A stretch of 64,000 nt of DNA, taken from Tubulanus polymorphus (Eukaryota > Animalia > Nemertea). Within the stretch, counting starts at the first letter, position 1; every line of letters begins with the position of its first letter. The stretch covers positions 17,384,560 through 17,448,559 of the forward strand of contig NC_134027.1 of assembly GCF_964204645.1 (NCBI RefSeq), read 5' to 3'. Below, piece by piece: positions 27,622 through 59,239 of this stretch. A program made the translations under genes and the position numbers. The notes under the pieces were generated by a model. It did not search any database, was not told the DNA's origin, and saw only the letters and a program-made list of their open reading frames with translations.

Positions 27622-27936
27622 GGCGGTGCTGGATTTGCATCAGTCTTGGGCGGGTTGGCTCGTCCAGCTATTCCACTACTAAAAAATATGGCCAAGCAAG
27701 CGGTTCCTCATTTACTGAGAACTGGTTTACACGTAGCCAGCGATGTGGTAGGCGGTAAGAATATCGCGACAGCCATCAAAGATCGTGGCATCGAAACAAT
27801 GGGTCGCATTATCAAACGAAGCTTAAAAAGACCATCTACCTCAAACCCAAAATCAATAAAAGGTCGTAAACGAAGTAGACGTATAACAACCGGAAAACGC
27901 GTTCGAAAAACCAAAGCATTCGCTGAAGCGTACTAA
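27622..27936 (+). pseudogene. 5'-truncated Gly-rich, basic core-like Maverick protein
   Basis: GGAGFASVLGGLARPAIPLLK amphipathic segment and K/R-rich tail directly upstream of the capsid gene. Confidence 0.6.
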
Positions 27937-32744: not shown

Positions 32745-33072
32745 ATTCGTAAAGGAAAAAGAAAAAAATCTTAAGGAAAATATCTTAAGGAAAAAAAAAA
32801 TCTTAAGGAAAAAAAAAATCTTTAGAAAAATATCTTGAAGAAAAAAATCTTAAGAAAAAAATCTTGAGAAAAAAATCTTAAGAAAAAAATCTTAAGAAAA
32901 ATATCTTAAGAAAAATATCTTAAGAAATCCCACCATCTTGGATGACGTCACTTCCGGCCGCCATCTTGGATGACGTCACTTCCGGTATGACGTCACTTCC
33001 GGTGTGACGTCATCCTCCTCACTCCTCCTCCCTCACTCCACTGTGGCCCCATAGTGACATCATGTAACTACT
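32745..33072. repeat. Maverick right terminal repeat region
   Basis: AAAAATCTTAAG array (~32760-32927), repeated TGACGTCACTTCCGG (CRE+ETS-like) and CCATCTT (YY1-like) motifs, terminal ACTACT. Confidence 0.8.
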
Positions 33073-37700: not shown

Positions 37701-39661
37701 TGGCTCCTTATTATTTCTTGGGCGATACCATTGGCGGACGATCCCACACGTTTCTTGATCCAGCCCTAGAATGCTCAATATTCGTCATGAACCCCGATTT
37801 GAATTTAAATTCAAAATACTCCTAAAACACACCTGTTAACTAGATTACTCTAAAACACCTTTATGTGCAAGAATCAGTGAAATTGGCGCTTTATCAGTTG
37901 TATTCATCATTCCTACCCACGAATCTCGTATCGTATCCTATGAATGTGGAGACCCATCCTCGTAAAGTGAATGAATAGGCTCTGTTGCGTTCATAATCAT
38001 TTGATATGAGGCTACGTGTTATCTTCAATTGAAATCACGTTGTTTTTTTCAAGGGTGGGCGAGAATATATTCTTTTGTTTTTGTTTCTCTGAATGTTGCT
38101 ATTTAAGAGTTCAATAATTTCAGTCTACCAAACAAAGGATTTTCCGTATGTTTCGTGACATGTTTTTCCATAACCCTAGGAGAGCATTTTAGGTATTTTT
38201 TGCGGATGACCGAAAGCTGCTGTCCCTTTCTAGTAATTTGATGATATCCGTCGAAATCTAAATTCTAAAAAGGAATCAGGCATATCTTCTTGTTTGACTA
38301 AATATGAACTCAACAACAAGTGACACTCCCTTCAAAGGCGCCGAAGTAAAATCATGTGTCGAGTGAAGATGATATTGTGTCAGAATTTCTTCAAAATCGG
38401 AGAAAATTGAATATTTTGAAAATAATCATTTTACCTGTATGTTTAAATCCGTTATAACTGGAGCAATTTTCATGAAAAAATATCTCTGGAATCAGCGAAA
38501 TGTAATTAAGAAGAATACTATGTTTAAAAAGTTATCAAAGACATTTGAAAAAAGTTTTCTGAATTCGTCAACTGTTAAACTAGTAACAACCAGATGTGTT
38601 CCCATTAAACCACCGACCGCGAGCCGAGTCGATGTGAGATGTGCCCTACACTGAAAATCTCAAGTGCTATACAACCGGTTTTTTAGGTGCCTCTGAATGT
38701 CGGCCGTTAAAAAACTGAACAATTCCCATTTGGAAAGGGCCTACGTAGTTAGAGAAAATTCAAGATGTGTATATCGTGTGATACAGGCTCCATATTTCAT
38801 GTGCGTTTGGAATTTAACCTTGTTTATAACGAAACACGCATGTATTTATGCTATTTTAGATTTAAAAAGAGCGCACGAAAGTGTTTCATGGGACCCGCAA
38901 ATAACGGTAAGTTATTCGTGCATTTTTGATTTATATGAATAAATTTCGCTTCGAAATCTTTAAATTTCTCAGGTGGATTATTCAATAAATTCACAACAGT
39001 CCATTATGGTTTAGTTTGACGCCAATCGTTCTTTTAAAGATCTTTCTTTCTCGAAGAAAGATTTTCTTAAAAACTTTGATTATGGTGAATCTTTTATGTG
39101 TCCGATAGTTAAACCTTCGGGTATTATACTAGAACACAAATCTTTAAAGATATTCATAACATACTGAAGGATATCACAGTTTATACCCGAAGATATGCAG
39201 TTGGATAGATCTTTTTGTTTCGACTCGCATGCGACAGTAAAAACGGTACTTGATATAATAAGTGAACTTCATCATCGATATTTTCACTAATCTACTTGAA
39301 TTCCAAAAAAGAACTGACAATGAAAGTAATTGGAAAAGTGGGCTTCCAGATCAGAGGACGAGAGGACGAGACACCACTCATCACAGCTAGGCTCTAGTGA
39401 GAACGGACGATTGCTCTGTGATACACATATACAGTGAGTGCGCGTAACAACAGCTGCGCGTGGATAGATCGATACAGTGAGTCTCTACTGAGAACGGTTA
39501 TTAACGCGTGTGCTATTACTGTAGTACAGTGATTGCGTGTAAACTGTACCCGGATAAATAGATGCTGTGAGGCTTGAGTGAGAACGGTTAATAGCGTGTT
39601 TGTTATATACAAGGGGAAGTAATCCCCACTCATCACCACAAGTAATTTGTTTTCCTTATAA

Positions 39662-39984
39662 ATGGGAGATAGAAAAGCATTCTTAGCAACAATAAAACAG
39701 AATAAAACCAGCAAAAAACAATTGAAATAAAAAAGTTAGTTGATGTTACAAAAGAAATTGAACATAAAATATTGAAATTAGAAAAGATAAAAACTAAATA
39801 TGGAGAGAAAGTATCAGCTAATTTAAGCTACTGCAATGTTAGTACATCGCGAGAATTTAAAGTATTTTTACCTGATAAATGGGTTTCATTGAGTACAGAG
39901 GAATTAAAAGATTTAGAAGGATTTAAAATAATCTATCATGGAAAAAATGAAGATGGCCATCATGATTTAGAAATTGTTGATTAA
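39662..39984 (+). pseudogene. Small hypothetical protein starting inside the left TIR, disrupted near its 5' end
   Basis: TAAATG start at 39662; the 39772-39984 ORF is its 3' part. Confidence 0.55.
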
Positions 39985-40174
39985 ATTTTAAAAAATAAAT
40001 TAATAAAAATAATGAATATTAAGAATCCGAAATAACTTATCTGGACAATTTAATTGCTCCGCATAGATGGTGCCATAAACAGCACCCACACAGTGATAGA
40101 CAAAAGTAGTGAGATATTCAATTAATATTCAATTAATTTAAAAAAATTATTTTTTTTGCTTTTTTTCTAAAATA

Positions 40175-40528
40175 TTAATCCATTTTTTTTATTATAAATT
40201 TTGGAATTTCAGAAGTATTTTCATTTTTAATAGCAGTTGTTTCAGAATTATTAATATCATGAATTTTATTTGATTTCTTATACCAATTACGCCCAATCAA
40301 AATGAATACAATTACAAATCCAACTGTAAAATATATTCATTTATCAAATATTCTATCATTAGAAGGAGTAGAAATAACAATATTTTCACTATTTTTATTA
40401 ACATTTTTATTACTTATTTTTTCTTTTACAGCTTTTTTATATTCTTGTGATTTAATTCCTAATTGCCGAGACCATTCAATTTGTTTCTGTGATCTCGGTT
40501 TTTTCTTCACTTCTTCCACCTTGTTCAT
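40175..40528 (-). pseudogene. Small basic membrane protein, frameshift near 40340
   Basis: KKPRSQKQIEW; paralog 16290-16661. Confidence 0.7.
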
Positions 40529-41066
40529 TTATTATAGAAATATTTTTACCTTCAATATTTGAAAATGTTATAACCCCAGTTGATAATAATGTCATAAATC
40601 CACCTAATTGAAATGATAAATATCCAATCCATTTATTTAATTCAGTCATAACTAAATAATCATTTTTTAAATCGGAATATAATCTATTTTCATCTTCAAT
40701 TGGTAGTATATAATTACATAATTTACTATAACCTTTTACTACATTTTCTGATATCGCGTCATTCATTCTAGCTGTTCCCGCGGTTTCATAAATCTTAAAT
40801 AATCTAATAATTTCATCTGATTTCATTGTATCTAATTCATTATAAGTTAAATTTTTAGCGGTAAAATTTTTACATTTTCCAGATGCTATTAATATTTCTA
40901 ATTGATGTTTACAATAAAGATAATATTCATAATTATTATTTGTTGTAACATTATTTAAAGCACCATCATCTGGAATTAATTTGTTTTCTGTTATTCCTAA
41001 ATCATCTAAAGTTTTTTCAATTGGAACATCACCATTTTTAGATTTTATTTTCTTTTCACCTACCAT
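40476..41066 (-). CDS. Polinton-like conserved hypothetical protein
   Basis: Open ORF; paralog 16654-17256. Confidence 0.75.
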   Translation of the reverse strand: MVGEKKIKSKNGDVPIEKTLDDLGITENKLIPDDGALNNVTTNNNYEYYLYCKHQLEILIASGKCKNFTAKNLTYNELDTMKSDEIIRLFKIYETAGTARMNDAISENVVKGYSKLCNYILPIEDENRLYSDLKNDYLVMTELNKWIGYLSFQLGGFMTLLSTGVITFSNIEGKNISIINEQGGRSEEKTEITETN

Positions 41067-41255
41067 TTATATAACAAACAAATTAGTTGTGATGTTGCAA
41101 CTAGAATTTAACTAGAATGTAACTAAAAATCAACTAGATTAACAAACTAGTTAAAATATTGTTGAATTTTGTTTGATTTTTGTTTCAAATACCAATAACT
41201 AGAATTCAACTAGAATGTAACTAAATCTGTAATAGATTAACAAGCTAGTTGAAAT

Positions 41256-41864
41256 TTAAATAAATTCATATTTAAACGGGTGTTGTAATCTAAATAGTAA
41301 TTTTGATCTTTTAATATTTTTCAACTTATCCATATATTCATTATGTAAATCATGTGGAATAATATCATTTTCCTCAAGTGCATTTTTCATCGATTTTCTA
41401 TCTTTATTGTAGAATAAAACTAGAAATCTAATATTTTCTCTAAAGTCTTTAACAATTGAATTATATTTTTGATTTAAAACCCAATTTGTTATCCCAAAAT
41501 GTCTGCCAAAAAAAGCTAAATATAATAACTCACTCTCTCTAACTTTTGAATCATGTAGATTAGCACAATCATCTATAATGAATAATGTATTTGATCCTTT
41601 ATAAATATCAATTGCTATTTTAATACAATTATCTAAATTTTCTTTTACTGTTTTAGGATCTAATATAATAAATATGTTATTTCTAGTAATAGTTCTATCA
41701 TAAGTTTGATTAAATTCATATGTTGGACAAAATAATACTATATTATCAAAATAGTTTTTATAAACAGTTTCTAATAAATTTAATATAAAATAAGTTTTTC
41801 CACAATTTGTTACACCAGAAATTAACATATTATGAGGCTCAAATATAAATAATTCCTTATTCAT
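41256..41864 (-). CDS. A32/FtsK-like DNA packaging ATPase
   Basis: Walker A GVTNCGKT, Walker B FIIDD, GRH, LNQ. Confidence 0.92.
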   Translation of the reverse strand: MNKELFIFEPHNMLISGVTNCGKTYFILNLLETVYKNYFDNIVLFCPTYEFNQTYDRTITRNNIFIILDPKTVKENLDNCIKIAIDIYKGSNTLFIIDDCANLHDSKVRESELLYLAFFGRHFGITNWVLNQKYNSIVKDFRENIRFLVLFYNKDRKSMKNALEENDIIPHDLHNEYMDKLKNIKRSKLLFRLQHPFKYEFI

Positions 41865-42992
41865 TTATATATTTTTAATTTTACTTGATAATATCCATTC
41901 ATTGAATTTATCTGGCCATCCAACCCATTTTACTAAAGAATATTTTTTTCTTTTAACAGTTTTTGTTTTTAATACTTTTTCAATTTTATATTCTTGTTCT
42001 AGATTTTCAGTAGTTAAACTTAATTCTTCTTCGTAAAAATACCCATCAACTTCTTCACCATTTAAATCTTCTAATTTATAGACATATGGTTTTGTTGTTA
42101 TTACCTTTTTTATTTTATATATTTCTCTAGTAAAATTTCGATCGTATCCTTTGTCAAATATCTTTTTATACTTAGAAATTCTAACATTTTGACCAACTTT
42201 AAATTTAGGTTCACCAAAATCATCTACAAGAAATGTTCCATATAAATTATTCCAAACAATTTCAGCATTTTCCGGTTTTCTAGCATCAATAGGTTTCATT
42301 CCAATAGAAGAATGATAAGAATTATTATATCCTTCTATCAATTTTGGTAAAACATCAATCCATTTAAAAGTATTATTTGCTGTAAAATATTTCCACATTC
42401 TTGTTCTTAATGTTCTATTAAATCGTTCAACAACTGCTGCTTTTTTATCCGATTTTGTTGAAAAATATTTAATATTATGATTGTCTAAGAGTTCATGAAC
42501 AAGTGAATTATCAAATTCTTTTCCATCATCAAATTGTATTTTTTCTGGTTTTAGTTTATCATCCGAAAGAAATTTTCTTAAAACATTTGATGTTTGTACA
42601 GCAACTTTTCTATAAAGTGGGAAGCTCCATACATAACGACTAAAAATATCAATTATATTCAATAACCACCAATAATCATCATTATCTTTCTTAACATTTT
42701 TCATAGCAATTAAATCTCCTTGCCACTGTTGATCTACATAACTTACCATAGTTTTACGAGTTTTATATTTTCTAACAATTTTTTTTTGTGTTGTGTATGT
42801 TGGTTGTTCTAACATAAATTCATTTATATCTTTATATTTAACTAAATTTTGTGGGATTATCTTATCTAATTTATCTTGTTTTACTTGACGCCATATATTT
42901 TTGGTAGAAGAATAAGCAACCGAACTCTCAGGGTTGTAATATAAATTTCTTAAATATTGTTCTTTAGTATTAGGAGTTTTTTTACCACCCAT
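41865..42992 (-). CDS. Retroviral-type (rve) integrase with chromodomain
   Basis: QWQGDL, QFDDGKEF, VERFNRTLR (DDE); LVKWVGWPDKFNEWI. Confidence 0.95.
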   Translation of the reverse strand: MGGKKTPNTKEQYLRNLYYNPESSVAYSSTKNIWRQVKQDKLDKIIPQNLVKYKDINEFMLEQPTYTTQKKIVRKYKTRKTMVSYVDQQWQGDLIAMKNVKKDNDDYWWLLNIIDIFSRYVWSFPLYRKVAVQTSNVLRKFLSDDKLKPEKIQFDDGKEFDNSLVHELLDNHNIKYFSTKSDKKAAVVERFNRTLRTRMWKYFTANNTFKWIDVLPKLIEGYNNSYHSSIGMKPIDARKPENAEIVWNNLYGTFLVDDFGEPKFKVGQNVRISKYKKIFDKGYDRNFTREIYKIKKVITTKPYVYKLEDLNGEEVDGYFYEEELSLTTENLEQEYKIEKVLKTKTVKRKKYSLVKWVGWPDKFNEWILSSKIKNI

Positions 42993-43022
42993 TTATATAT
43001 CCTTAATTTTAACTTTATATTT

Positions 43023-44269
43023 CTAATATTGAATACTATCTAATTGTGAATTTACAATATTTAATTGTGCGTCAGATATAATATAAATGTGCATTTTGAA
43101 ATTTAAGCTTCCTTTTTTCTTTTTCATAAATAATTGTATTCCATCTTTAGTGTTCTGTAGTTTTTTCCCAGAACCATGTAATGAATTATCCTCTGTTTTT
43201 CTAAAATCTAACCATAATGCATATTATTGCCGGTATAATAATCAATTTGATTAATATTACAATTTTCAAATGATTTTACTTTTTCATTCATAAAATGTTT
43301 TCTAATTTCTGGCCACTGATCAATCATTCTCATTCCTTGACAAAATATTTTATTTGCTATTCCTTCGATAGTTATTTCAACTTTTGTTATTTCAGGATTA
43401 TAATAATTATCTACCTTTATTGCTCCATTAGAATATGTTGCAATGGTAAAAAATATTAATATTCCTTTAATAGATCTTCTTGGGAAGTTAATATTCTCAT
43501 TAATTATTTCATCATTTGCATTAATAGTTACAGTTTTAAATTTATCAATATAATCATATAATAATGAAAATCCTTGATTGTATTGAGTTTGAATTGTGCT
43601 AGCAATATTTTCATTAGTTACTGTGTTATATTCTAAACATATATTCGATAATTTATAACCCATATCTTTAACAACGCTAGATAATACAATTTCATTAACA
43701 AGAGCAAATGTTATCTCAAATATAATATCTTCTTGAATTGCGTATTTATATAAAGGCGCATTATTATTTATCAATTCAAAGTCTAATGGGATTTTATATT
43801 TGCTTCCATAAATCTTTTTAATCAAATTATCTGTGGCACGAGTTACTATTGCGTCATTAGCTCCTGATCTTAATTTATTATGGTTTTCTGATTGGATGCC
43901 TTGAAATATCATATTATTTCTATTTTCTTTAGTTAACCATAAATCTTTATAATGCATAAATAAATTATAATCATATAATGAGAAAACTGTTTCTGGACCA
44001 ATCTTTATAGTTAATTTTTTAATCAAATATCTCCCAACATTATCAACAACATAATTGTTATCATGGCCAGTTACTTTTATATCAGCTGATAAATAAATAC
44101 TATTTGGAACATAAAAAGTATTTTGTGTTAATCTAGGAATTCTAACATATAAAGTTTCATCGGGATTAATATTTGAAGGATTATGAGTAATTATATGATG
44201 TGATCTTTCTGCTTTAATAGCATTAGATATTCTAGAAATCTTAGAAGGACTTATATAACTCCCACTCAT
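43023..44269 (-). pseudogene. Putative major capsid protein, 1-nt deletion near 43222
   Basis: Comparison with copy B shows one missing A; the corrected frame runs to SQLDSIQY* at 43023. Confidence 0.78.
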
Positions 44270-44289
44270 TTATTTAACAAAAAAATTAA

Positions 44290-45717
44290 TCATTTATTTT
44301 TAATCATGTTTACTTGGTATTTTTTTGATATCATATTCACTAACCCAAAAATAATAGCACTTACAACTGTAATTAAAAATAAAATAATATGTTCAGCAGC
44401 AAAGTTAATAATGTTTCCTGCAGATTTCAATATAAAACCAACAATTGATGCAATAATTCCTGGCAATGCTGCAGCAGATTTTTTAGATAGTTCCCATAAA
44501 TATTTTGCTAATTTCTTTAAACCATCTTTAACTTTATCTTGTATAGAATCATTATCATTCGGGGGTTTATCCGGTTTATTGGGAGTGGGAGTAGATTTCA
44601 AAGCATTTGATATTGCTAAACCAATTGTTGTAAATAACATAGTTACAGCTGTTAGAATTGAAAGAATTGTAATTCCTTCTAATTTAAATAATAACTTTAT
44701 TCTATCTTTCAATGATATTTCAGAATTTGGTTTAATTAACAAATCTTTAAAAATAACTTTTAATCTATTAATATTATAATCATATGATTTTAATAATAAT
44801 TTAATTTCTTCTTTTTGTAATTCTATGTTATATTCTAAATCATCAATTTCTTTTTCTAAATATGCATTTCTTTTTTTAAATTCAATTTCTTCAATAACTT
44901 TATTATCTCTATCTAATTTTAATTGTTCTATTTCTTTATTTTTATCAGTTAATTCTTTTTCTAAAGTTCTAATTTTTAAATCTCTTATACTTTTATCATG
45001 CGCAATTTTATCAGCTTCATTTCTTATACTAATAATTTCTCTTATTGCTTTATCAGAAAATATATCTAAATCTTCTAATTCTTGATCTGTTGCATCAATT
45101 AATCCATTCGGTAAAAGTTTTTCAATTGAAACTTTATTTGATTTAAGTTTACTAGTTTTGGAAGTTATGTTCTGTTCAGAAGTTGTTTCTGTTTTTGATT
45201 TCTTTTTGATTATTTCAAATAATTCATTAATTCTTTGTTTAAATACGTCTATATTATCATGTATTTCTTTTTGCGTAACATCAGTTATTTCATTACTATT
45301 ACTTATCATTCTAATTTTATCTGGTTCTAATTTTTTCAAAGTTGATTCCGCTAATATTTTTTTATTATTTTTATAAGTGATATCAATATAATAATCACCT
45401 TTCAAACGATAATAACATTTACCATTATCTAAAAATTTTAATTGATTTGCTAAAAGACCAACGTCTTCATCATTTATGTTAAGTTTAGATTTTTCAATTA
45501 AATCTTCTAATTTAGGTATTTTGTTTAAATTATCTAAATCTTGTTTTACTAAACCTGGGTCTAAATTAATATAATCAGGCATATTTAAATTATTATTATA
45601 TTCTGGCTCATTACCATCATTAAAACTTGTTTCACTAAAATCAGGTTGTTGTTCATCAGTTATACCAGGTTCATCAAAAGGATCCATTCCAATATCTTCT
45701 CCACCTTCTACATCCAT
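44290..45717 (-). CDS. Coiled-coil membrane protein (475 aa)
   Basis: Intact; ends shared with 24786-26513. Confidence 0.8.
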   Translation of the reverse strand: MDVEGGEDIGMDPFDEPGITDEQQPDFSETSFNDGNEPEYNNNLNMPDYINLDPGLVKQDLDNLNKIPKLEDLIEKSKLNINDEDVGLLANQLKFLDNGKCYYRLKGDYYIDITYKNNKKILAESTLKKLEPDKIRMISNSNEITDVTQKEIHDNIDVFKQRINELFEIIKKKSKTETTSEQNITSKTSKLKSNKVSIEKLLPNGLIDATDQELEDLDIFSDKAIREIISIRNEADKIAHDKSIRDLKIRTLEKELTDKNKEIEQLKLDRDNKVIEEIEFKKRNAYLEKEIDDLEYNIELQKEEIKLLLKSYDYNINRLKVIFKDLLIKPNSEISLKDRIKLLFKLEGITILSILTAVTMLFTTIGLAISNALKSTPTPNKPDKPPNDNDSIQDKVKDGLKKLAKYLWELSKKSAAALPGIIASIVGFILKSAGNIINFAAEHIILFLITVVSAIIFGLVNMISKKYQVNMIKNK

Positions 45718-45740
45718 TTATATAATAAAAAAATTAAAAT

Positions 45741-46145
45741 TTAAAATATAATATTCCTCCTATAACAATTCCTATACAAGTTAAAGCTAATTTAGTATTT
45801 TCATGTAATTTATTATCATTATCAGTTTTAATTATAACAACTTACACCACAACCAGTTGTTGCACAATGAACAGCAAAATTTAATTGATTCTGCCAATAT
45901 TTCATATTAGATTTTACTTTATATATATTATATTCATCTCGAGTAAAAGTAACTTCATATGTATTAAATATATTTTCCATTTTAGAAATAAAATAGTTTG
46001 TTTCAGTAACATAAATTTCTAAATTAATCAATGAAGGTAAAACTAAATTTTTAAATATTATCATGTTACTAAAATCTATTGCTGGAATATTATATTTATA
46101 ATATTTATTTGATTTATTATATTGGAAAGATTTTGGAAACCCCAT
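45741..46145 (-). pseudogene. Internally deleted paralog of 23457-24763 (~0.9 kb missing)
   Basis: ATTGCG motif joined directly to the C-terminal KLALTCIGIVIGGILYF. Confidence 0.8.
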
Positions 46146-46161
46146 TTATATGATAAAAAAA

Positions 46162-46596
46162 TTAATAATTAACTAATTCTTTTAATAATTTATCTTGTTC
46201 TTCAACTGTTATATGACCATTTAAACTTATTTTATAATCTAGTGTATTCTTTAATCTATTAATCTCTTTTATATTAGTTTTAATTTTTTCTTTATTACTT
46301 TTTATATTTAATTTTGAACTTATACCAGTTAAAACACTTGAACTTAATCCTAACACACCAATTGATATAGCTAAAGGTGTTTATGGACTGAATATTGCTA
46401 GAAATGTTATTACAGAACTAATTGTAACCGAACCACTTATAATCAAATAATATATAATTTTACTTTTTAAATATTTTTTATTTTTTATCTTTAAGTCACT
46501 TTCAAATTCTAATATTTGTTTTTCTTAATATATTTTTAATTTATTTTTATTTATATCATGAGGAATAATATCAATACTATCAACTTTATCTTCCAT
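46162..46596 (-). pseudogene. Two-TM protein with two TTA>TAA nonsense changes
   Basis: Same 435-nt length as intact 23006-23440. Confidence 0.8.
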
Positions 46597-46615
46597 TTAT
46601 TTAGCAAAAAAATTA

Positions 46616-47038
46616 CTAATTAGTAAATTTATATGCTACAAATATAACAATAACTGTTCCACCTAAAATCCAAATTATTTCATATTTCTGTTGTTCTTTA
46701 CTTGGGGTATAATAATCTGATAATTTAGGTTTGTATAGATGTAATTTTTCTTTATTGGTTACCGCGTTATATAAACTCATTGCATCATCAACTGATTGAA
46801 AATCTCTATGTGAAATCTTCCGATCATATAATTCCTTGTTAATATAATCCATATAGTTTTGCCTCTTTTCTCTATATTCTTCTGCTGCTTTATTGTATTT
46901 CTCTAATGCTAAGTTATGTCTTTTTTGTTCTGTTAATGAACCATTTTTATCAATATGCTTGAATAAATAACCACCACCAGTAAATGCTAAAGCGTTAACA
47001 ATTGCCGATCCTATAATAGTTATAATTGCAGAAGCCAT
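46616..47038 (-). CDS. Small membrane protein (140 aa)
   Basis: N-terminal hydrophobic helix, KRHNLALE coiled coil, C-terminal TM; three copies in window. Confidence 0.8.
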   Translation of the reverse strand: MASAIITIIGSAIVNALAFTGGGYLFKHIDKNGSLTEQKRHNLALEKYNKAAEEYREKRQNYMDYINKELYDRKISHRDFQSVDDAMSLYNAVTNKEKLHLYKPKLSDYYTPSKEQQKYEIIWILGGTVIVIFVAYKFTN

Positions 47039-47062
47039 TTATTTAGTAAAATAATTACGCAT

Positions 47063-47284
47063 TTATATGGGAGGAATATATTTTTGTTTTTCCAAATAAT
47101 CAATAGTTAAATAAGATAAAGTAACTGCTAATGTTAATTTTAAGATATCATTTATATCAAATCTATCAACATTAACACTTCCCATTTTGAATACTTTTTT
47201 TAATACCATTGAATAACCAACAGTTCCAACTGATAGTAATGCGCCATTATATAATCCAGTTATCATCCACTTATTATCACTCAT
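47063..47284 (-). CDS. Small hydrophobic protein (73 aa)
   Basis: Three copies in window; TAAATG start. Confidence 0.75.
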   Translation of the reverse strand: MSDNKWMITGLYNGALLSVGTVGYSMVLKKVFKMGSVNVDRFDINDILKLTLAVTLSYLTIDYLEKQKYIPPI

Positions 47285-47287
47285 TTA

Positions 47288-47641
47288 TTAATCAAAAAAA
47301 TTACTATCTTCAAAATATTTAGTTATCTTAGTGATGATTATTTCAACATTTATTTCATTACTAGTTTCATTTGTATATATTTCAATTATTATTTTTTTAA
47401 TATCATCGATGATAAAATCTTCATCTAATTCATAAAATCTTAAAGATTCTCTAATTAAATTAGTAATCTTTTCTACATTAAAAGTTTCTTTATCTATTGT
47501 TTTTTCATACTTAAATGTTGTTTCATTAGAAAATGCAATATTTTTGATTTTTGTAATTACATCATTAATGTTAAATTTCATTTCTTTCTCACGTTTAGAA
47601 TCAAATCCAAAACATATACTCGGTCCAACAGTTATATTCAT
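47288..47641 (-). CDS. Hypothetical protein (117 aa)
   Basis: Paralog 21958-22314. Confidence 0.78.
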   Translation of the reverse strand: MNITVGPSICFGFDSKREKEMKFNINDVITKIKNIAFSNETTFKYEKTIDKETFNVEKITNLIRESLRFYELDEDFIIDDIKKIIIEIYTNETSNEINVEIIITKITKYFEDSNFFD

Positions 47642-47658
47642 TTATATAGTGAAAAAAA

Positions 47659-48423
47659 TTACTCTTTACATCTTATAACTAATTCATATATCACAGGAAA
47701 GTTATTCAAATCAATTAAATATCCATTATGATTTCTTATTTCTAATTTAAAATTATTGAAATGTGGAATACAAGGTTTAAAATCACATTCAGTTAAATTA
47801 TAATTTATTTGCGTTCCAAATTGTTTAACATTCTTCAATGGTAAAATGTTTAATATACTAGAATTACAAGTTGCTTCAAATGTTTTTGTTGGGTCAATCA
47901 AATTGCAATAAATATAAAAATGCGTAAAAGGTATTAAGTTTGATCTACCGTATATGTTTTCAACAATACTTTTATCTGGAGGAATTCCTAACAGTTTAGC
48001 AAAAGGTTTTTTTACAAAGTAAGCAGGTAAAATAGTACCAATAAGTTTTTCATCATTAAACTTTATTTTAATTTTATTAGAGCTCTCAGTTTTTATGAAT
48101 TTAATATTAAATTTAGAATCACTTCCTAATTTAGCTCGAGCTTTTCTATTAATTTCTTGTTCTAATGTATCTAAATTATATAATCGTGGTGTAAGCATAA
48201 GATGAATCCAGTCATGTATATTTTTATCATAAATAAAAAAGGTTCTATGTTCATTTGTTTTATCTGATACATTATAAAAAGAGTTACATAAACTTATATT
48301 AACTAATTTTAAATCTACACAATTCTTAAATTCTCTATCTAATTGAACTAGTAAATTATGTGATTTATAATTTGTAAGTTTTCTAGAATCAACAAATATT
48401 CTGTATTCTTTTAATTCTACCAT
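47659..48423 (-). CDS. Putative minor capsid (penton) protein
   Basis: IFVDS..., LVNISLCNSFYNV, FAKLLG, YIYCNLI, LIDLNNFP single jelly-roll pattern. Confidence 0.78.
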   Translation of the reverse strand: MVELKEYRIFVDSRKLTNYKSHNLLVQLDREFKNCVDLKLVNISLCNSFYNVSDKTNEHRTFFIYDKNIHDWIHLMLTPRLYNLDTLEQEINRKARAKLGSDSKFNIKFIKTESSNKIKIKFNDEKLIGTILPAYFVKKPFAKLLGIPPDKSIVENIYGRSNLIPFTHFYIYCNLIDPTKTFEATCNSSILNILPLKNVKQFGTQINYNLTECDFKPCIPHFNNFKLEIRNHNGYLIDLNNFPVIYELVIRCKE

Positions 48424-48491
48424 TATTTATAACATAAAAAAATTACCGCTCATCACTAAAAATTAATTTTAATAAAAATTTTCCTAAATAA

Positions 48492-49813
48492 ATGGATGAG
48501 AAGATAGCATGCGAAATTTGTGGTGAACTTCTAAGAAAAAGTAATATGGCTCGACATATGAAAAAACATAAACCCCCTAAACTAAACTGTCCAAAATGTA
48601 ATAAATTATTCTCAAGAAATTATGTTAAAAAACATTCAGAGAAGTGTAAAATTAATGGTGCAACGGCTAATGTTGATAGTAATGAAAGTAATAGTAATTC
48701 TGTTGAAGTTGAACCTGAAGGTATTTGGAAAAGACCTTTCTTATTCTATGATAAGGATAATATAAAAGATCATATCTGTGAGCCTTGTCAAGTAAAATAT
48801 AGCCCTGAAAATATAGAAGATTGGGAGAATGATCAATTTCGTAAAGCACATATAGATAAAATTTCTAATAAATTTGAAACTGAATTCAACGAAAGAAAAA
48901 ATAATTTATTAGAAAAAATAAAATATGAGAAAACGTTACCAGATAATAAAGAAACAGTTGAAAAGTTAGAAAAACAATATAATGAATTAACAAGAAAAAC
49001 ATATTATTGTAAATATTGTAAATTGATTATTACAACAAGTAATTCAAATCTACATAATAGAACAATAAAACATAAAGAAAACGTAAGAAAATACCAAGAG
49101 CTTAATGAAGATCTATTACCAATAAATTATAAACGAAAATGTCCACAATGTAATTACGCGACCTTAAGGCAAGAATGTACTGTGTTATTTTGTAATGAAT
49201 GTGGATGGCAAAAGAATTTATGGAGTGAAGAAAAAACTAGAAATTTTCTCATAGATCCAAAATTAAATTATCTAGATGAAATTTTTAAAACATTTTCTAT
49301 AGAAGATCATACACCAGAATATATGCAATGGCTTGAAAAAATGAAAATAATAGAAAATAGAAATGGTGAAATAACTAAAAAAGATATTATAAAAACAATT
49401 ATTCCGTCAACATTTAACACAAAACAAAAAAGAAAATGTATTTATATTTATTATTTAACGATTATTATGAAAAACCTAAATTAACAGAAGAAGATATGAA
49501 AAATATAAAAAAAATATTCAAACAAATATTAATGTATCATTTGGAAAATAGAATAACAGATTCAATAAATTATGAATTCTTTTTAAATAAGATTGTAAAT
49601 CATTTAAACATAGATATTATAATTCCATTTGATGAATTAACAAACAAAAAGAAACAAAGAGAGCGAGATGAAATGTGGAACAAGATAGAACTTTATTTAA
49701 ATGAGAAAAATGAAATGGAAGAAGAACCTAAACAAATTATACAAGAACAATTAAATGAAAATGAAGAAGCCAATAGTGATTTCGAGTATGATGATATTGA
49801 TTTTATGTTTTAA
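48492..49813 (+). pseudogene. Multi-zinc-finger protein, frameshift near 49435
   Basis: CEIC..H..H, CPKC..H..C, YCKYC..H..H, CPQC..CNEC. Confidence 0.7.
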
Positions 49814-52800
49814 TGGCCATAAGGTAATGTTTTTATACCATCATCTGAAATATGTCTTTTATCATCAAATGGATTTAAACTAGTTTTTTCAACTTCATTA
49901 ATGTACATCTCATGATCTTCTGATCTTAGACAATTCATTTTGTGTTTCATTACAATTGAGTTATATAAACACTTTATATAATCTTGAAATTCTATATGTT
50001 TATCAACCACGTGCTTTGTTATTCCTTTTAACTTTTTAGCTTCATGATCTTTTGTTCTATAACTATACATTTTACTTCTTATCCCAACAAATTCAATCAT
50101 TTCATCACCCCCTAATTCATCTTTAAACTTACCAGGAATCTTTTTATTATCATTGCTAAATAGTTCATGATCTTTGCGATAATTGCTAAAATCAAAATGA
50201 TGTTTTAATGTTTTTAAGTCTTTTGTTATGTCATTTTTCTTGATTTTTAGTATGTAGGCGTCCGTATTTTTGGCTATTAATGGAAATCCACAGTTAAATG
50301 TACCATCTTCAGTTGATAAATCATAAACATAATCTGATGGGTTATATATTTCAAATAAATCTTTAACTTATTCAGTTAAATCTTTTTCTGTGTGGCTTAG
50401 ATTAAAGCAATTTGTTTTAGATTTAATCAATCCAATATTCATATTGAAGCCTAATGAATTACATAATATATTTAACCCTGATATAGCAACTTTTCCTTTC
50501 TGTGCAAAGGTTATCTTTTTATCCTTTGTAAATTTTTTAGCACCATCTGCTGCATAGAATCCAATGAAGAACCATTTTCTTAAATTATTTTTTTCATTTA
50601 ATACATACTCTGGTACTATCTTTTCTTTAGTTGAAGTATAACTTTTCACTATTGCATGAATATAGAATTCATCATTATATTTTGTAGCAAAATTTTTAGG
50701 ATTATTTACAAATATTCTATAAACCGCGGATGATTTCATATGATCCATGATTCTAAATGTTTTATGTGAATAAACCTCTTCGCAGAATTTCTTTATTCTT
50801 TCTAATAATTTTAAGTCTTGATTGCATAAATACCAACGATATTGAGTGCGATTAACATATTTATACACACCTGCTGAACCATCACCCATGAAAAATCCTT
50901 TGATAAAATATTCTTTTTCTTCTAATGTTTCGGTTCTATGTTATAAATATTATCAATTATTTCATCAAATGACATATGATTCATTCTTTGGAAAAATCTT
51001 TTATGTAATAATTCATCTCCAATTTTTATATCAGTTGGTTTTATTTCATCGCCATTTCGTTTAATTAAACTATGATCTTCTGTAACATCTACAAACCCTA
51101 ATTTAGTTCTAACTCTATAGATTTTCTTATTTGTTTTATGTCTAATAATATACTTTAATTTTTTCCATCCATTTCTTGTCCAAACATCCATTAAATCAGT
51201 TATTTTTATTAATTCTTTTTCACCATATGAAATATAACATTCATTTTGTTTTGGAATTATTTCTGAAATTCTTCTTATCAATATTTTATCATTACATTTT
51301 AATAATATTGGGGTGTCAGCTGTTACAGAATCAAAATATAATATTTCAATATGCTTTTCCCCAAAAAGTGGTTTTAAAACATTATAATAAAAATCATACA
51401 TTAATAATTTTGATACTTCTAAAACAGTTGAACCAATGAATATAGGTTTATTAAATTTCATTGACGTTCTTTTAAATTTAACTGCTGTTAAATAATCTTC
51501 AAATCTTTTATTTCCTAAATGTCTAGGACTTGATTGTAAATGTCTTAATCTTTCAGAATTATTTACTAATTCAATATCATTTCTATTTCTAATATTTTCA
51601 CATGTTTTACCATAAAAACTATTATTCATTAATTTGAAGAAATCTTTTTCAAAATCTGTTTTTGATATGGTTCTCTGTTGAGTATTGAAATCTATATATT
51701 TTTCTAACCACTTCGATTGATTAAATTCAATATATCTTTGTACTTTCTTTAATTTCATTCCTTGTTTTAGATAAAATTTTAACATTCTATAATGAACAAT
51801 ATAATTGTATTTATTATTTTGAGTAAGTATTAATTTTTCTGTAAAAACATGATCTTTCGGTTTTATTTTCTTCTGGTATTCACTTAAATAACTATCATCT
51901 ACAGTTAAATGTTCTGGGCAATAAGGTAAGTTTCTTGTTTTAAACTTTATATTTTCAGGATATTCTAAATCAACTACAATGAAATAACCAATTGGTGCTT
52001 CATCTTTTAAACTCGCAATTGCGCTTTCCCAATCAGTTTTATCATCATTTTCAACTTCTGTTAATATAAAATTTTTGTATGGTTGAGGTTGCATCATTGC
52101 CCAGCCATATAAATTATTGGCGTCAATATATAATAATTTATATTCATCATTTGCTTTAAAATACCTATCTCCCATAACACCACTAATTCCACCTCTAATT
52201 GATTTTTCAAATAATAAAACCATATCTGGTTCTTTTAATAAATCTAATTCTACATTTGTATATTTTAAACCACATTGCCAGGTTAAACCAGGACTAGAGT
52301 AGCAATAACAAGGATCAACATTAAAATGATTCAAATTAACTTCTCTAAATTTTTCAAATATGTCAGCCAATATCATAACATCTGATTTTAAATATAAATC
52401 AACTAATTCACCATGATTTTTCATCTTAAAATGGTTCCAAATATTTAATGTTCTATTAAACACTTCATCTTTCACATACACCTCTTTTAATTGATCATAA
52501 AATTGATCTTTTAATAATTCTGTTACATTAAAATCATTGTGTGTTTTATAAAATGAATAAGGAATTACGCCTTTATATCTCAATAATTTAAAATCTTGTT
52601 CATTTGGATAATAATATCGAGTTATAACAAAATCATTATCAACTAAACTTTTTGATAAATTATCTAATGAACTTGCTAGAAATCTATAAGAATCTAAAAA
52701 TCTAATGCAACCAAATTGAAATGAAATATAATTTTCAGATGTTTTAGCTAATAGTTTAAAATCATATTTTCTTACATTTACACCATTCATAGCATTATAT

Positions 52801-54488
52801 TCTTCTATTTCTTGATTAATTGCGCCCAATTTTCCCGATAATTGTTTGATAAATAGATGGGTATCATAGCCTGATAAATTATGAAATAATATTGGCACGA
52901 AATTAACTTTCTTAGCTTGTAAATTGCAATCTTCATGAGCAGCTCCACGATATTTTGAATTTAAATGATCATGATCTCTAACTTTTTTATCAAATGAATA
53001 AAAACGTTTTTCACAATAACAACAATGAGTTGCATAATTAAAATCAATTTCATCTTCTTTTGTCATAACTATTCTTTTATTTTTGTTTAATAATTTTGCA
53101 AAATCACTTTCTAATTCAATCATTTTGTTACAAAAATCATTAACTACATCTTCACCTCTAAAAGAAATATATTGACTTTCATATAATTCAGGATAATTTG
53201 ATTTTATATAAATTCCATAAGCAGCAGCTCTTTGATGAACTTTTTTGATTGTATTTATAATTGGCGGGTCTTGTATTGTGTCTTCATTAAATTCATTTCC
53301 TTTATCCATTGATTTTAATAATTGCTTTTTGTTATATATTTCTTTTCTATCTTGCTCAGTTAATTCTTTATTCAACGATTCAAAATCCCCATAAATTACA
53401 AATGGAACAATATTTTTAAATTTATGATTAGTAAATTTCAATTTATAATCTTTTTCTGTTGGCATTATTAATTTGAAAAAATCTTTATTATCACATAATT
53501 CTTTATGTTTTAATAATGTATTCTCTGTCATAAATTTAGATAAACATTTTCTACATAGATAAATTTTATGATGATGATCACTTTCTGTTCTAAAGAATAA
53601 ATCAATTTGTTTTAACCACATATAATGTTCATTTTCATCTTTTTTGTAATATAACAAATCTATAGCATTTTCATCATCATAATATTCTGTTAAATATAAA
53701 GCTTCCAATGTATAATCTTTAATATTTTCACCTTTTGTCTTTGGTAATTGCATTAATTCAAATACATTTATTTTTAACTTATTAATTTTTTCTATTTTGG
53801 GTATCATTTTTATAGTTACTGGATATTGATCAATTTTATATAATGTTTCATATTTCCGATAATCTGTTATTCTACAAACATTTTCCTGTGTTGGATGTAA
53901 ACAACTAATAATTGACCATAGAAAACATTTATTATCTTCATTTTGAACATTTATTACTGCTATTGTTGTAAATGGTAATTTAATATAAGATGATGCTTTA
54001 ATATCCTTTTCTGTTGTAAAGTTTGAATCATTTTTAAACATTTTATTACTTTTTGATGTTTTATTCCTTTTTGTATTGTAAACATTTAAATCTAAATATA
54101 TAATTTCATTCAATGTTAAGCCAGAACCCTCAAAATATCTTTCTTCAATATGACGTTTGAATTCATTAAATATTTTTTCTAACTTCTCTTTTATTTGCGT
54201 TTTTGAAATTATTTCTTCAGAGAGTGTTTGAATATTATAATCCATTTTTTCTTCTGACTTTATAAAACTTACTTTCCCAGAGATACTAATTTTTGGATAT
54301 TCAACATCTGTTATCAAATCTAGTATTTTTTCTATTATTTCATTAAATTTACGATAATCTTCTATTGTTGTACCTTTAAAAAATCTAAATATAATAGCTG
54401 CAGGACCAATTCTACTATGTAATGTTTCTAAAATTTCAATTGTATCTTTTATTTCTAGTGAATCAATATAATTTCTAACATTTTCCAT
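49810..54488 (-). pseudogene. polB: Protein-primed family B DNA polymerase containing an intein
   Basis: YGDFES, FHNLSGYD, FLDS, YIDANNLY, KLMNNSFYGK, YFD|intein|TDA, KMY, KLKG; lesions at ~50930 and 50368. Confidence 0.95.
50266..51329 (-). mobile_element. Intein with LAGLIDADG homing endonuclease (~355 aa)
   Basis: Block A SVTADTPILL, block B VTEDH, blocks C/E GFFMGDG and GFYAADG, block F YVYDLST, block G LIAKN followed by +1 Thr. Confidence 0.93.
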
Positions 54489-54494
54489 GTAAGG

Positions 54495-54872
54495 TTAATT
54501 TGAAATGGATTTAGTTTTTGAATTTGGTTTTTTTACTTTTTGAGGTTTATCGTTAAAATAATCTTTTCCTAAAACATTATTACTCAAATTTTGGTGGTGT
54601 TTTTGTGATTCGAGATGTCTATTATAATTCCTTTTTACTATAAATTCATCACAAACTTCACATTTTATTTCATCCACATTCATATTTTCTAATCTTTCTT
54701 TTCTTTCATTGGAATTTTCTGGAGTTTCAAAATCTATTACATTTTTTATATGATTTGCAGTTTTTTCATGTCGTGTTTTATTAGATGTATCGACGTATTT
54801 TTTTACAATATGTGCAATAATATTGATTTTTATTAACATTATTGTTTCTGGCTGGTGTTCATTCTCCCCCAT
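54495..54872 (-). CDS. Zinc-finger protein, in frame with polB (possibly its N-terminus)
   Basis: CEVC...RHLESQKH; separated from the polB ATG only by TAA-CCT-TAC. Confidence 0.6.
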   Translation of the reverse strand: MGENEHQPETIMLIKINIIAHIVKKYVDTSNKTRHEKTANHIKNVIDFETPENSNERKERLENMNVDEIKCEVCDEFIVKRNYNRHLESQKHHQNLSNNVLGKDYFNDKPQKVKKPNSKTKSISN

Positions 54873-55602
54873 TTATTAGGGAAAAAAATTACTTGTGGTG
54901 ATGAGTGGTCTCTCGTCCTCTGATCTGAAAGCCCACTTTTACAATTACTAATGAAAAAGGGTTACAGCTGTGACTGATATCACTCAAAATTTCGATTCCT
55001 ATGAACACTTTTCATATAAAGAAAACTATTAACGAAACAGTTTTTAGAGGCGAAGAATCCGCGTTACCATTGAATTTTCAAAACTTGTAGGAATGGTTAA
55101 TGCCTCGGTGACCACTGGTCTAGTACGCGGTTTTCTGAAATGAAAGTGGCCAAGTCTAAAGAACAACTATTGTATCACATGATTTCAAATAACAGGAACC
55201 CAATGCGTTTAATGATTTTAATTAATTGGTATCGCGCAGATTGGTTGAAAGACGAGTGTTAGTCACCTTGTGATTTAATTGTTTTTCATGCATCGATTAA
55301 TTAATCTTATTATAACTTATTTGTAGGCGCTTCCCGCAAACATTTTCTATTCGTTGAGTTTTCAAACGCAGTACTGTTCAGATGATTCGAGTCAAGTAGT
55401 AAAAAAGTTTATGTATTAGCATTACTATGCAGTGAAAATAACGCACTGCGGTAAGTGAGGTGCTGTGATCCAGATGTGTAACCCATTTATGGGTAATAAA
55501 TTTCCATCATGTCAACGCCATTCAAAAACAGTAGCAAAACTTTCTACTGGTTTCTAGAAATAACAATACGACGACAAGCACTTTCGAATTCGACCACGAT
55601 AT

Positions 55603-56000
55603 TTGAGAAGTTTCACTTGGGCAGTGGTGGTCAGTGATAGTCAATTTATGAATTTTAATGGCGAATCCTTTCTAGTTTCACACCAAATGCGGTACCGGTA
55701 TATCGTTCTTTCAAGAAGTTTCAATTGGTCAGTGGTGGTCAGTGATGGTCAATTTATGAATTTTCAATGGCGAATCCTTTCTAGTTTCACATCAAATGCG
55801 GTACCGGTATATCGTTCTTTCAAGAAGTTTCAATTGGTCAGTGGTGGTCAGCGATGGTCAATTTATTAATTTTCAATGGCGAATCCTTTCTACTTAGACA
55901 CCATAACGCGGTATATCGTTTTCATATTCGAGAAGTTTGAATTGGTCATTGGTGGTCAGTGATGGTCAGTGATGAATTTGCAATGATGATTCCTTAGTAG
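55603..56000 (+). repeat. ~108-bp tandem repeat, about 3.5 copies
   Basis: GAAGTTT at 55607, 55715, 55824 and 55932. Confidence 0.9.
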
Positions 56001-59000
56001 TTTGAAATCAAACATTACATGATAAATTTCCGAAATTCGAAGTCAAGTGTTCAGACTCGGGGATATCTCAATTGGTCAGTTACTGACCATCATGGTGTCA
56101 CCATTGTGGTCTATAGCTCAAATGAAACATGTGGAACCGACGATGGGGCCCAAAAGCGTTAAGTCATTTCCTGGAGTGACGTGATCCAAAAATGCCCTAA
56201 CTGGCAAAGGCATTCTCTCAATTGGTTGAAACCAAATCGGACAAGACAATTACAATTTGGGAAGGTCACAGGTAGTGGTCTTTCTACGAAGCCCACGCGG
56301 TGAGCGTATTATTATGAAATCTGTTTTTAAACCACCATGTACCACGAAGTAATAAGCATCGTTGTAAGCACTTGAAACAGCCATTAACCACTTGAAACTG
56401 CCAGATCAAACATCATACCGCATCCCCGCAGAGGGGTGGTTCAGCAAACCGGAGTTTTCATTGGCCTCTCTAGACTACCCCGCCAGTACGGGTAGCCGAG
56501 CAAACCGGAAAACTCATAATGGAAAGACAAAACAAACAAGGCTTTCAATTTGTAATTAACACTCCCAAAGCATGTTTTTTTTTGTTCGCAAAAATGAATT
56601 CCTTTTCTATACACGTATTTGATCACGGCGAATCTTCGCTCGAATAGATCTTTGATATTTAGGGTGATTTTCTTTGGCCACGGTCCACCACGCCGAACAC
56701 AGGTGCCCCCGCAAAACCTATGTTTTTTTTACAATGTAGAATTCTATATGAGTTGGGAAGGGCACTCGCCTCTATTTATTCTTTAAAACTTAAGACTGGC
56801 TGTGCGCTTCACCAAGTTTCGACTTTGACATATTATTATATCTGTATACTCTGTACACATCAATCCGTAATGGATATAACAGTATAATAAAGAGTTTATT
56901 GAATTGAATTGAATTATCTCGAATGTCGTCTGAGGTCTTCCGTAAGAAAGGCCTATAGCCTCACCTCTAACCCTATCCCTAGTTGTGAAACGGAACCCTC
57001 TGGACTCTCTTCTCGCCCTCTTGACACTAACCCTATCGAAACCTTACCCTAAACCCAATATACTGATTTTATTGTTACATAATAGGCCCTATATGGATCC
57101 GGCAAAATGTTATTATATTTTATAAGTCCGTTACCGGATCTGGCTAAATAACCACTTCCTAAAAATTAATTTGGATTTGCCAGTGTTCTGAAGAATTTCG
57201 GAGGCACCCTTATTCTATTAATACAATTCAATTCAATGCCTATTTGGGCCTAAAAGCTGATCTGGCTTTTTGGTGGTCCTACGAGTCAACGTAGTCATGG
57301 CGATGAAAAAAGGAGGTAGGTTTACTTTTAGGACATGGATTGGTGGTGTTAGGGCGCCAACTGTTTGTTACTGCTGATGGCAGTCATTGCAGAGTCTTAG
57401 GCCTATATGTTTATTTTTAATTTGATAGCCGTAGTATCGATTCCGTCTCCCCATATCTATTTCATTGTGCAAATAACCAAATATTCAATCGATATGCTAC
57501 TTCACGGTTCACTGAGAACCTTAGTGTCAGTGGTATATCGCTAACGCAGTGGTTCACGCGAGCTCTTTAGTATAGGCAGTATACGGAGCTCCGCGAACCG
57601 GCCATTCTTAGGACTGGGTGAACTTCACGGAAGATTATGCGTGCACAATCGAATAGGCCCAAACCTCCTGTATTGCCGCGATGATTGCTGATTAGATTTC
57701 GATGATATCGTTCACCGAAATCAGCAAGTTTTACACATCCATGAAGTGTTCAAGGAAAACCTTACAGATGCATCAATCAGATGGCGCCTATACATTACAA
57801 AGATAACATTCTGCGCCCGAGATATTAAGATCCGTGGATCTCTTGTTTCAACTCGTCTTACTTGTCTCTTGTTAACAGTTCCAGAGTTTCAATTACAATC
57901 AAATTCAAATTGGCTGAAAAGTACATAGGACTTAATGAAATGAACTGTTAGTCACTGCAAACCTATTGTTATTATTGTGTTATGTCAATCGTGTTGAATC
58001 ACTTTGCTTGAGTTGAAAGAATCAGATTTTCTATGGTTCAACATCGGTCGAAGAGAGATATCTTTGGGTTGACTGTCCTTGACCATTTAACTTCATGTGT
58101 TTATTGTACATTGGAATCAGCATCATACCCATTTGAACTGCAAAATATTCATACAACATGAAAACCTACAGAACATGTATACAGTTATCAAACTTTCACC
58201 GATGTTGGATATTTGAATGAACGTAAGGCTTATTTCAGAATTCTAAAGCAGGAAATAATAAGCCCAATCAGAAGGCCCTATTCCCATTGGTACAATTGTA
58301 TAATGCGTAAAGCTGTACCGTACACTTATAAGTCAAGATTGGAGAAATCGGTATACCAAACCTACGTAGGCCTACAGCAAAATGTACAGGCCTACAATGA
58401 TTTCTGGTATACAAGCCGTTACCACATGAACGTTTTGGTTCTAGGTTTGACTATTAATGTCAGCAGGCCAGAGAAGGAGAGAAGGTCAAAGAATTTAATT
58501 GCATGGCTCAAATCAATAAGCCTTTCTGCGTGTGAATACTTCACTGTAGGCCTATTGTTTTAAAAATAGGCCTATCGAGTGAATTGGTGCATAGACTGAA
58601 TTAGACTTTCGGCTAGTCCTGACCGAATCCTATCCATGTTATAATGGCACCAGTTATAGTAACATCACTGGAGGGCCGACGAGAGGGAAAAAGTTGTGTT
58701 TGTAGTTCATAGGCATGGTAGGCCTATCGTACTCACTTAATACTTAAGACACTGTTGTTACCTGTACGCAGAGATGCTAGTTTTCCGGAAATATCCGGAA
58801 TTCCGGAAATTTAGGATCGCCGATGTCAATTCCGGAAATTGGGTGAGAATTCCTCGCGGTGACCAGTAATGGCACGGACCGAAAAAGCGTTCGTTTGCTT
58901 GTACTCGTCGTCGCTTCTGTGTTATTTTATCTTGGTCTCTGTTTCCGAGGACGTTCTGCTACAATGTATATAATATATATATTATGTGTGCTTGTTGTGG

Positions 59001-59239
59001 TATCTATGCGTGCGTAGGCGGAGCGCCACTGTTGTGAAGCCATTTCCAATCAATAAACTTTACGTGCCGTTGTACATCGTCCCGCTGACGGCCAACAATG
59101 TGAAGATGCACGTGGTAATAATTAAGATGATATTTAATAAATATCATCTTAATTATTACCACGTGCGTGCTATGTCCTGAGGCACGCAGCTTTGTAACTT
59201 TCTTTTTGCCTGCAGCTGTCAAGCGGGACGGTCGGCAAA

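Follow-up and report, generated by a model that had tools for sequence, protein, structure and literature searches.

Intein chemistry comprises an acyl shift at Ser1, a transfer to Thr+1, and the cyclisation of the terminal Asn, and the Thr and His residues of block B also take part in it. The pol-c (site III) intein of the Mimivirus PolB protein R322 has a length of 351 aa according to the accessible sections of its description (PMC549080). In the accessible part of a 2018 survey of eukaryotic inteins, nuclear inteins are given for fungi, amoebozoa, choanoflagellates, apusozoa, and a green alga, viral inteins are given for four NCLDV families plus unclassified viruses, and inteins of animals or Polintons do not occur among those given (PMC5784728). 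For Polintons, HNH and VSR nuclease domains have been described in the polymerase pPolB2, in a paper in whose accessible text the words 'intein', 'LAGLIDADG', and 'Hint' occur 0 times (PMC10748475). One sentence in the accessible text of another paper speculates that the pPolB nuclease domains derive from intein invasions (PMC11071308), and a further study mentions inteins as background only (PMC12220804). A published description of a Polinton intein was not found in the main texts of the freely accessible literature.

In this study, we analyze a stretch of 64,000 nucleotides (the window) in which a broken intein lies in the YxD-TD motif of a Polinton polymerase. We hold with considerable confidence that this intein likely goes back to one giant-virus origin and likely spread among Polintons by homing. 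Within a known intein family, the inteins of this kind form a Polinton-specific clade which, as far as the literature was searched, is previously undescribed.

The intein in the polymerase gene

The insert comprises 1064 nt on the minus strand and splits the pPolB catalytic motif (YFD, S…N, TDA). On this strand, the N-extein ends with EILYFD at 51330 and the insert starts with SVTADTP at 51329; it ends with CGFPLIAKN at 50266, and the C-extein starts with TDAYIL at 50265 (Table 1). The motifs VDVTEDH, GFFMGDG (50878-50898), GFYAADG (50542-50562), and YVYDLSTEDG are located within it. A first-pass annotation, made from the letters alone, had proposed from these junctions and motifs a LAGLIDADG intein at the pol-c site inside a Polinton pPolB; the junctions and motifs that it had described were confirmed, and the profile search that it had suggested agrees with this assignment. 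TIGR01445 scored 34.2 bits (cut-off 24.5) with the N-terminal piece and LAGLIDADG_3 29.5 (cut-off 22.5) with the middle piece of the window intein; for PF14890, the window pieces stayed below the cut-off and the unbroken relative P0003 exceeded it. Because both TIGR01445 and LAGLIDADG_3 are above their cut-offs and the full length of the insert can be aligned with an unbroken relative at 62% identity, the likeness is not due to chance, and the insert is, judged from its sequence, a genuine LAGLIDADG intein at the pol-c site of a Polinton pPolB.

The residues of a class 1 intein in the window copy, i.e., S1, TxxH in block B (TEDH in the window copy), the terminal N, and T+1, are shared with all seven aligned relatives. 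The His residue that is usual, though not universal, in the penultimate position of inteins is Lys in the window copy. In the family, KN is the majority state (131/213, compared to 60/213 for HN), and His is found in P0003, P0181, P0192, and P0193. Both LAGLIDADG motifs end in the catalytic Asp-Gly, and both motifs are also retained in the seven aligned relatives. A structural model of the P0001 intein (pLDDT 78) matches inteins bearing a homing endonuclease (HEN) in the PDB (7qsu, E 2e-15) and, in BFVD, PolB entries of phycodnavirus, Pandoravirus, and Megavirus (best E 1e-27).

Two other identities of the insert were rejected. A Hedgehog-type Hint domain, which the first-pass annotation had listed as contrary evidence, was matched neither in Pfam nor in the fold matches listed, and the insert contains an endonuclease domain. 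An assembly artefact is contradicted by an X1 contig piece (51291-51479) which spans the N-junction with 2 differences, by continuous read depth, and by the occurrence of the same junctions in independent proteins.

Table 1 Coordinates of the intein, its host polymerase, and the surrounding Polinton in the window
Feature	Coordinates	Strand	Basis
Intein coding sequence	50266..51329	-	Ser start, Lys-Asn end; 62% identity to unbroken P0001 intein
N-terminal Hint (splicing) part	50934..51329	-	Block A SVTADTP, block B VDVTEDH; TIGR01445 above cut-off
Two-motif LAGLIDADG homing endonuclease domain	50371..50928	-	PF14528 above cut-off, PF05204 just under
C-terminal splicing part	50266..50367	-	Blocks F and G, YVYDLST…IAKN; alignment with relatives
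pPolB N-extein, ending YFD	51330..54872	-	PF03175 E 6e-18; 65-66% identity to intein-less P0312-P0314
pPolB C-extein, starting TDA (Thr+1)	49810..50265	-	73-83% identity to intein-less relatives
Polinton/Maverick element, 15,625 bp	39325..54949		TIRs, TSD, pPolB, integrase, ATPase, capsid-like gene
Left target-site duplication, 6 bp AATGAA	39319..39324	+	Perfect match to right copy
Right target-site duplication, 6 bp AATGAA	54950..54955	+	Perfect match to left copy
Left TIR, outer arm	39325..39364	+	95% complementary to right arm
Right TIR, outer arm	54910..54949	-	Partner of 39325..39364
Retroviral-type integrase with chromodomain	41865..42992	-	PF00665 E 2e-9, PF00385
A32-type packaging ATPase	41256..41864	-	PF04665 E 6e-15
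Probable double-jelly-roll major capsid protein	43208..44269	-	Look-alike clusters only

The window copy is broken in three places. Two of the breaks are inside the intein, a frameshift near 50931 and a stop codon in frame at 50368-50370, and the third is a further in-frame stop at 54495-54497 in the pPolB N-extein. The insert length of 1064 nt itself implies a frameshift in the reading frame. With these breaks, the intein and polymerase copy is dead, and a full-length translation is impossible. The one-base repair of the first-pass annotation corresponds to the frameshift, and the two stops had been missed. The polymerase gene starts at 54872 rather than at 54494: the ORF upstream of the stop at 54495-54497 aligns with the N-termini of the intein-less P0312-P0314 (1319-1365 aa), and the polymerase therefore measures about 1330 aa instead of the about 1200 aa estimated before.

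The host element and the rest of the window

By its termini and gene content, the element that surrounds the intein is an integrase-inserted Polinton; the earlier view that it is integrated is borne out by the TIRs and the perfect 6-bp TSD. Its GC content is 24%, compared to 35-41% in the 5-kb flanks. A second pair of TIR arms (39626-39669 and 54865-54908) is 91% complementary. Within the left end, a short ORF-like stretch starting from a TAAATG is located at 39860-39985, and the AT-rich sequence there disrupts the symmetry of the two terminal repeats. For the capsid-like gene, look-alike clusters score 0.96-0.97, with recognition below threshold, and some of them carry Capsid_N (23%, 83% of members); a paralogue at 26534 is 95% identical and has a weak Capsid_N match. 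A protease gene was not found by Pfam in the element. Ten of the eleven gene starts in the element read TAAATG, compared to 47 of 626 ATGs overall (p 6e-11), and most of them are preceded by a T-rich run about 10-20 bases upstream. TAAATG resembles the poxvirus-type late promoter motif, and its prevalence suggests that the element may use the transcription machinery of a large DNA virus, which would be a setting where Polintons and giant viruses could meet.

Decayed pieces of the same Polinton family, partly inverted with respect to the main element, are located at 1-1100, 13500-17300, and 21300-27700, and their identity to the main element is 80% for the ATPase, 47-71% for the integrase, and 95% for the capsid-like gene. 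Neither a pPolB catalytic region nor an intein was found in these other Polinton remnants of the window. TAAATG also precedes genes of these pieces (e.g., near 250, 685, 22988, 23439, and 24768). An ORF of 407 aa at 28021-29244, richer in GC and without match in Pfam or NCBIfam, may be a capsid gene that belongs to a second Polinton family, and a PC4-domain ORF is present at 30745-31383.

The window also contains a Ty3/gypsy retrotransposon at 928-7995, with protease, RT, RNase H, integrase, and a baculovirus-F-type env; a pair of inverted repeats (1808-2041 and 3936-4169, 97%) bounds an insertion within it. A broken hAT/ZBED-like transposase occupies 59198-61764 in four ORF pieces, and its look-alike clusters are mostly animal, a weak lead. 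Tandem arrays were found at 32760-32936 (units of about 14 bp) and 55599-56012 (units of 108-109 bp). Rfam gave 0 matches within the window, and neither a host gene nor a marker RNA was found there with Pfam and Rfam. The env-bearing Ty3/gypsy element, the hAT-like transposase, and the decayed Polintons fit an invertebrate genome, and the host of the intein-bearing Polinton is likely to be an animal. The insert resides in a mobile element rather than in a host gene.

Filled and empty alleles in the same organism

Reads from 4 of 11 runs of the same organism were compared with positions 49600-52200 at 85% likeness, and the main counts refer to X6, a raw DNA run of which 1934 Mb, or about 12%, were used; one marine-metagenome run with a small share gave only short pieces and was left out of the counts. 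In X6, the mean depth was about 206 over the intein bins, compared to about 363 over the N-extein bins, and the reads were spread across every likeness class (379/2350/1718/1974). The intein stop at 50368-50370 was absent from 171 of 173 reads and the frameshift near 50931 from at least 148 of 236, short reads that cannot span any single intein copy to show it open throughout. In addition, 29 reads with 21 different starts connect position 50231 with 51330 through 34 intervening letters, a net skip of exactly 1064. These reads represent empty alleles, in which the first codons of the C-extein are not the same as in the window. The window copy is a dead representative of a family that is present in many copies, some of them filled and others empty; for an assumed genome size of 0.2-1 Gb, the depth would correspond to about 20-100 intein-bearing copies.

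Relatives of the intein and of its host polymerase

Relatives were collected by three protein searches and one exhaustive search (best 150 of 461). Unbroken proteins consisting of pPolB plus intein are, among the matches listed, P0001, P0003, P0181, P0189, P0002/P0012/P0017, P0192/P0300, and P0193; P0030, P0329, and P0409 are fragments. Unbroken inteins are located at the same site in several other pPolB families, two of which have filled and empty alleles, and the pPolB inteins share only 40-76% identity with one another. In one of these families, the shared N-extein of the filled P0012 and the empty P0015 is 99.5% identical. In the other, the P0181 cluster (136 members, contigs up to 1 Mb), the 15 members listed include 7 filled, 5 empty, and 3 fragmentary ones. 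Both intein-plus and intein-minus copies, whose comparison the first-pass annotation had suggested for this genome, occur in reads of the same organism and in relatives. Empty sites occur in P0015, P0294, P0295, P0297, and P0311-P0314, and the insertion is in frame in the filled relatives. The polymerases nearest to that of the window are all empty, and the 118 further pPolB matches comprise 105 empty, 11 truncated, and 2 filled ones. In many empty pPolBs (P0311-P0428), the Thr in position +1 is replaced by Cys; 39 of 105 read D-C-D-S, and this form of the catalytic motif could make the site resistant to the endonuclease.

The other close inteins are located in RNA-primed PolBs, except for a small number of family members hosted by topoisomerase II and Xrn1-like proteins, among them P0044, P0165, P0187, and P0178; in a quick FastTree tree, the one from Xrn1 is placed within the pol-c inteins. 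Of the 205 pol-c inteins scored as 'other', one of which (P0189) is in fact in a pPolB, 198 follow YGD, and 22 further inteins are at pol-b. Among the 80+80 viral and metagenome loci obtained by alignment scans, 0 of 160 had pPolB exteins, and single-protein scans of viral contigs with the window endonuclease part, P0001, and the neighbouring env gave no matches. Two loci (L161 and L164, 1501-2508) have viral-type PolB pol-c inteins with 37-38% identity to P0001 on archaea-binned contigs, one of them labelled Promethearchaeota; they may be true archaeal genes or misbinned viral contigs.

Phylogeny and origin of the intein

Intein trees were calculated with FastTree for 73 rows, including the best 65 of 96 non-Polinton representatives, and with IQ-TREE (LG+G4) for 35 rows; LG was used with no mixture model, and the trees were rooted on the family's own pol-b inteins. 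The 8 pPolB inteins tested form one clade in both trees (100/100) on a long stem (0.38), and this clade is nested among the pol-c inteins of RNA-primed viral polymerases, with a sister support (93/96) just short of the starred level and weak deeper forks. After extension with 13 loci of giant-virus MAGs and 7 inteins of prokaryote-labelled MAGs, 7 GVMAG rows were placed in the sister clade (SH 96-97), and the rows labelled as prokaryotic took other positions. The AU test rejected the monophyly of the 23 non-Polinton pol-c inteins (p-AU 0.016). The giant-virus ancestry assumed in the first-pass annotation is in line with this nesting. The nearest relatives, for which it had named the Mimivirus-type PolB intein, are found in uncultured giant-virus MAGs, in a comparison whose sequences did not include Mimivirus. 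An archaeal donor was rejected, as the three archaeal inteins stand far from the Polinton clade, and so was a phage donor, for which matches in 6 records were short and weak.

The polymerase tree was based on 330 residues before the site and 55 rows, in which the empty polymerases are represented by 45 from the set of 105 and by 2 others. The 8 filled rows require 7 changes among the 55 rows, compared to a mean of 7.7 after shuffling; repeated loss can also give such a scattered pattern. P0189 is a member of a remote pPolB group, its exteins and those of the window are not matched by BLAST, and its intein groups with that of the window (95/86), a placement to be read with the caveat of its long branch. 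P0012, P0192, and P0193 group together on both the intein and the polymerase tree. In place of the transfer into this particular element that had been proposed, the data point to one older jump, a Polinton-specific clade, and later moves among distant pPolB lineages. Co-infection, the route assumed in the first-pass annotation, is a possible setting of the jump.

Proposed splicing and homing

From the sequence comparisons, we infer splicing, cutting, and the direction and route of transfer as follows. Unbroken precursors are predicted to splice by the standard route via Ser1, Thr+1, and the terminal Asn, and since the insert divides the catalytic motif, an active polymerase would be obtained only by splicing. 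Polinton copies with an empty motif are the predicted targets of the endonuclease, and repair of the cut copies would bring the intein in, sometimes along with flanking sequence; a genome rich in Polinton copies would offer many homing targets. The founding step would have been one jump from a giant-virus polymerase, followed by homing among Polintons. The conservation of the LAGLIDADG motifs in inteins that have diverged to 40-76% identity argues for continued homing.

Between filled and empty members of the P0181 family, 4 of the 7 residues directly preceding the site are different, as are 12-13 positions of the C-extein, compared to only 6-14 differences in the other approximately 1030 N-extein residues. 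This clustering at the site fits co-conversion, and it could also reflect cut-resistant alleles or plain recombination. The flanks of the window site share on average 11.4 of 18 bases with 149 giant-virus-type sites, and the codons for Tyr, Asp, Thr, and Asp form a near-invariant core. The likeness makes the first jump plausible, and a match of only this extent implies that it needed a tolerant nuclease.

Alternative explanations

The pPolB inteins might instead be an old inheritance from a pPolB ancestor, lost in many lines or moved passively by recombination of polymerase modules, with an endonuclease that no longer homes. Their monophyly on a long stem, their low mutual identity, and the common grouping of P0012, P0192, and P0193 on both trees would suit such a history, but it sits badly with the preservation of both LAGLIDADG motifs despite the divergence, with near-identical filled and empty alleles side by side, and with the P0189 intein, which nests with that of the window even though the P0189 polymerase is unrelated by BLAST. 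As 105 of 118 further pPolB matches are empty, inheritance alone would require very many exact losses, and we consider it quite unlikely. A donor outside the Nucleocytoviricota, such as an archaeon, a phage, or a large DNA virus that has not been sampled, or a transfer from Polintons to giant viruses, is in our judgement very unlikely. Some hosts in the tree possibly lie outside the Nucleocytoviricota (P0005 is delta-like), and five contigs in prokaryote-labelled MAGs contain inteins that are 33-38% identical. The four of these five that were placed stand, like the three archaeal inteins, away from the Polinton clade, however, and the extein of the fifth has an identical counterpart among the viral-type proteins; moreover, the GVMAG rows in the sister clade, the weakness of the phage matches, and the AU test, which favours the nested position, all point to a giant-virus donor.

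A third explanation accepts the intein and places it in a host other than an animal (a protist, a fungus, or a symbiont), or attributes the read depth to free virus rather than to the germline. The window has neither a host gene nor a marker RNA that could be recognised, and the closest polymerases are on short metagenome contigs, both of which are compatible with this view. It is nevertheless unlikely in light of the perfect TSD in a repeat-rich flank with 35-41% GC, the env-bearing Ty3/gypsy element, the further decayed Polintons and the hAT-like transposase (the latter a weak lead), and the distribution of the reads over many divergence classes. A single giant-virus origin followed by homing among Polintons is the most likely reading. 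A wider picture has about even chances of being correct: in it, the Polinton polymerases of animal genomes contain tens of copies of a self-splicing intein lineage that is still homing and stems from one giant-virus jump, from RNA-primed to protein-primed polymerases, and the Polintons share cells with giant viruses as virophage-like dependants.

A Polinton-native intein clade would mean that inteins have reached a new class of polymerases and probably animal chromosomes. As homing requires that giant viruses and Polintons share a cell, the clade would also document, at the molecular level, that the two have exchanged DNA. In genomes with filled and empty alleles, homing dynamics would become countable within a single genome, and the question arises whether animal cells naturally splice such a precursor. 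Alignments and annotations of Polinton polymerases should be screened for the insert.

Comparison with known systems

With the pol-c inteins of Nucleocytoviricota, as far as covered by the accessible text of PMC549080, the insert shares the size of about 350 aa, the Ser start, the Thr and His of block B, two LAGLIDADG motifs, the Asn end, Thr+1, and the identical position in the catalytic motif. The host differs: here, it is the protein-primed polymerase (PF03175) of an integrating Polinton, present in multicopy insertions of a cellular genome, whereas theirs are RNA-primed (PF00136). The N-terminal flank of the pPolB inteins reads YFD, YGD, YMD, YSD, YLD, SSD, or ASD, in contrast to YGD in 198 of 205 viral hosts. 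The architecture of Hint plus two-motif LAGLIDADG is the same as in the archaeal HEN-bearing inteins TliVMA (7qsu/7qss), PhoVMA (7qst), PI-PkoII (2cw7), and PI-PfuI (1dq3), which the P0001 model matches in Foldseek with E-values of 2e-15 to 2e-9 at only 13-18% identity; those with structures are mostly from other host proteins or sites, and the archaeal pol-c inteins are distant in the tree.

Like the HNH- and VSR-bearing pPolB2 proteins, the window locus has a nuclease domain inside a Polinton polymerase, but those are described, in the text accessible to us, without splicing parts, whereas the active site of the window polymerase is interrupted by a complete Hint domain, and empty alleles exist. 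The element as a whole corresponds to Polintons/Mavericks and alpha-type adintoviruses, in the available portion of PMC8502044, in its TIRs, 6-bp TSD, PF03175-type pPolB, integrase, A32 ATPase, capsid-like gene, and length of 15.6 kb. It differs from the adintoviruses, in whose available description the word 'intein' occurs 0 times, in having no recognised protease and in the intein that interrupts its pPolB.
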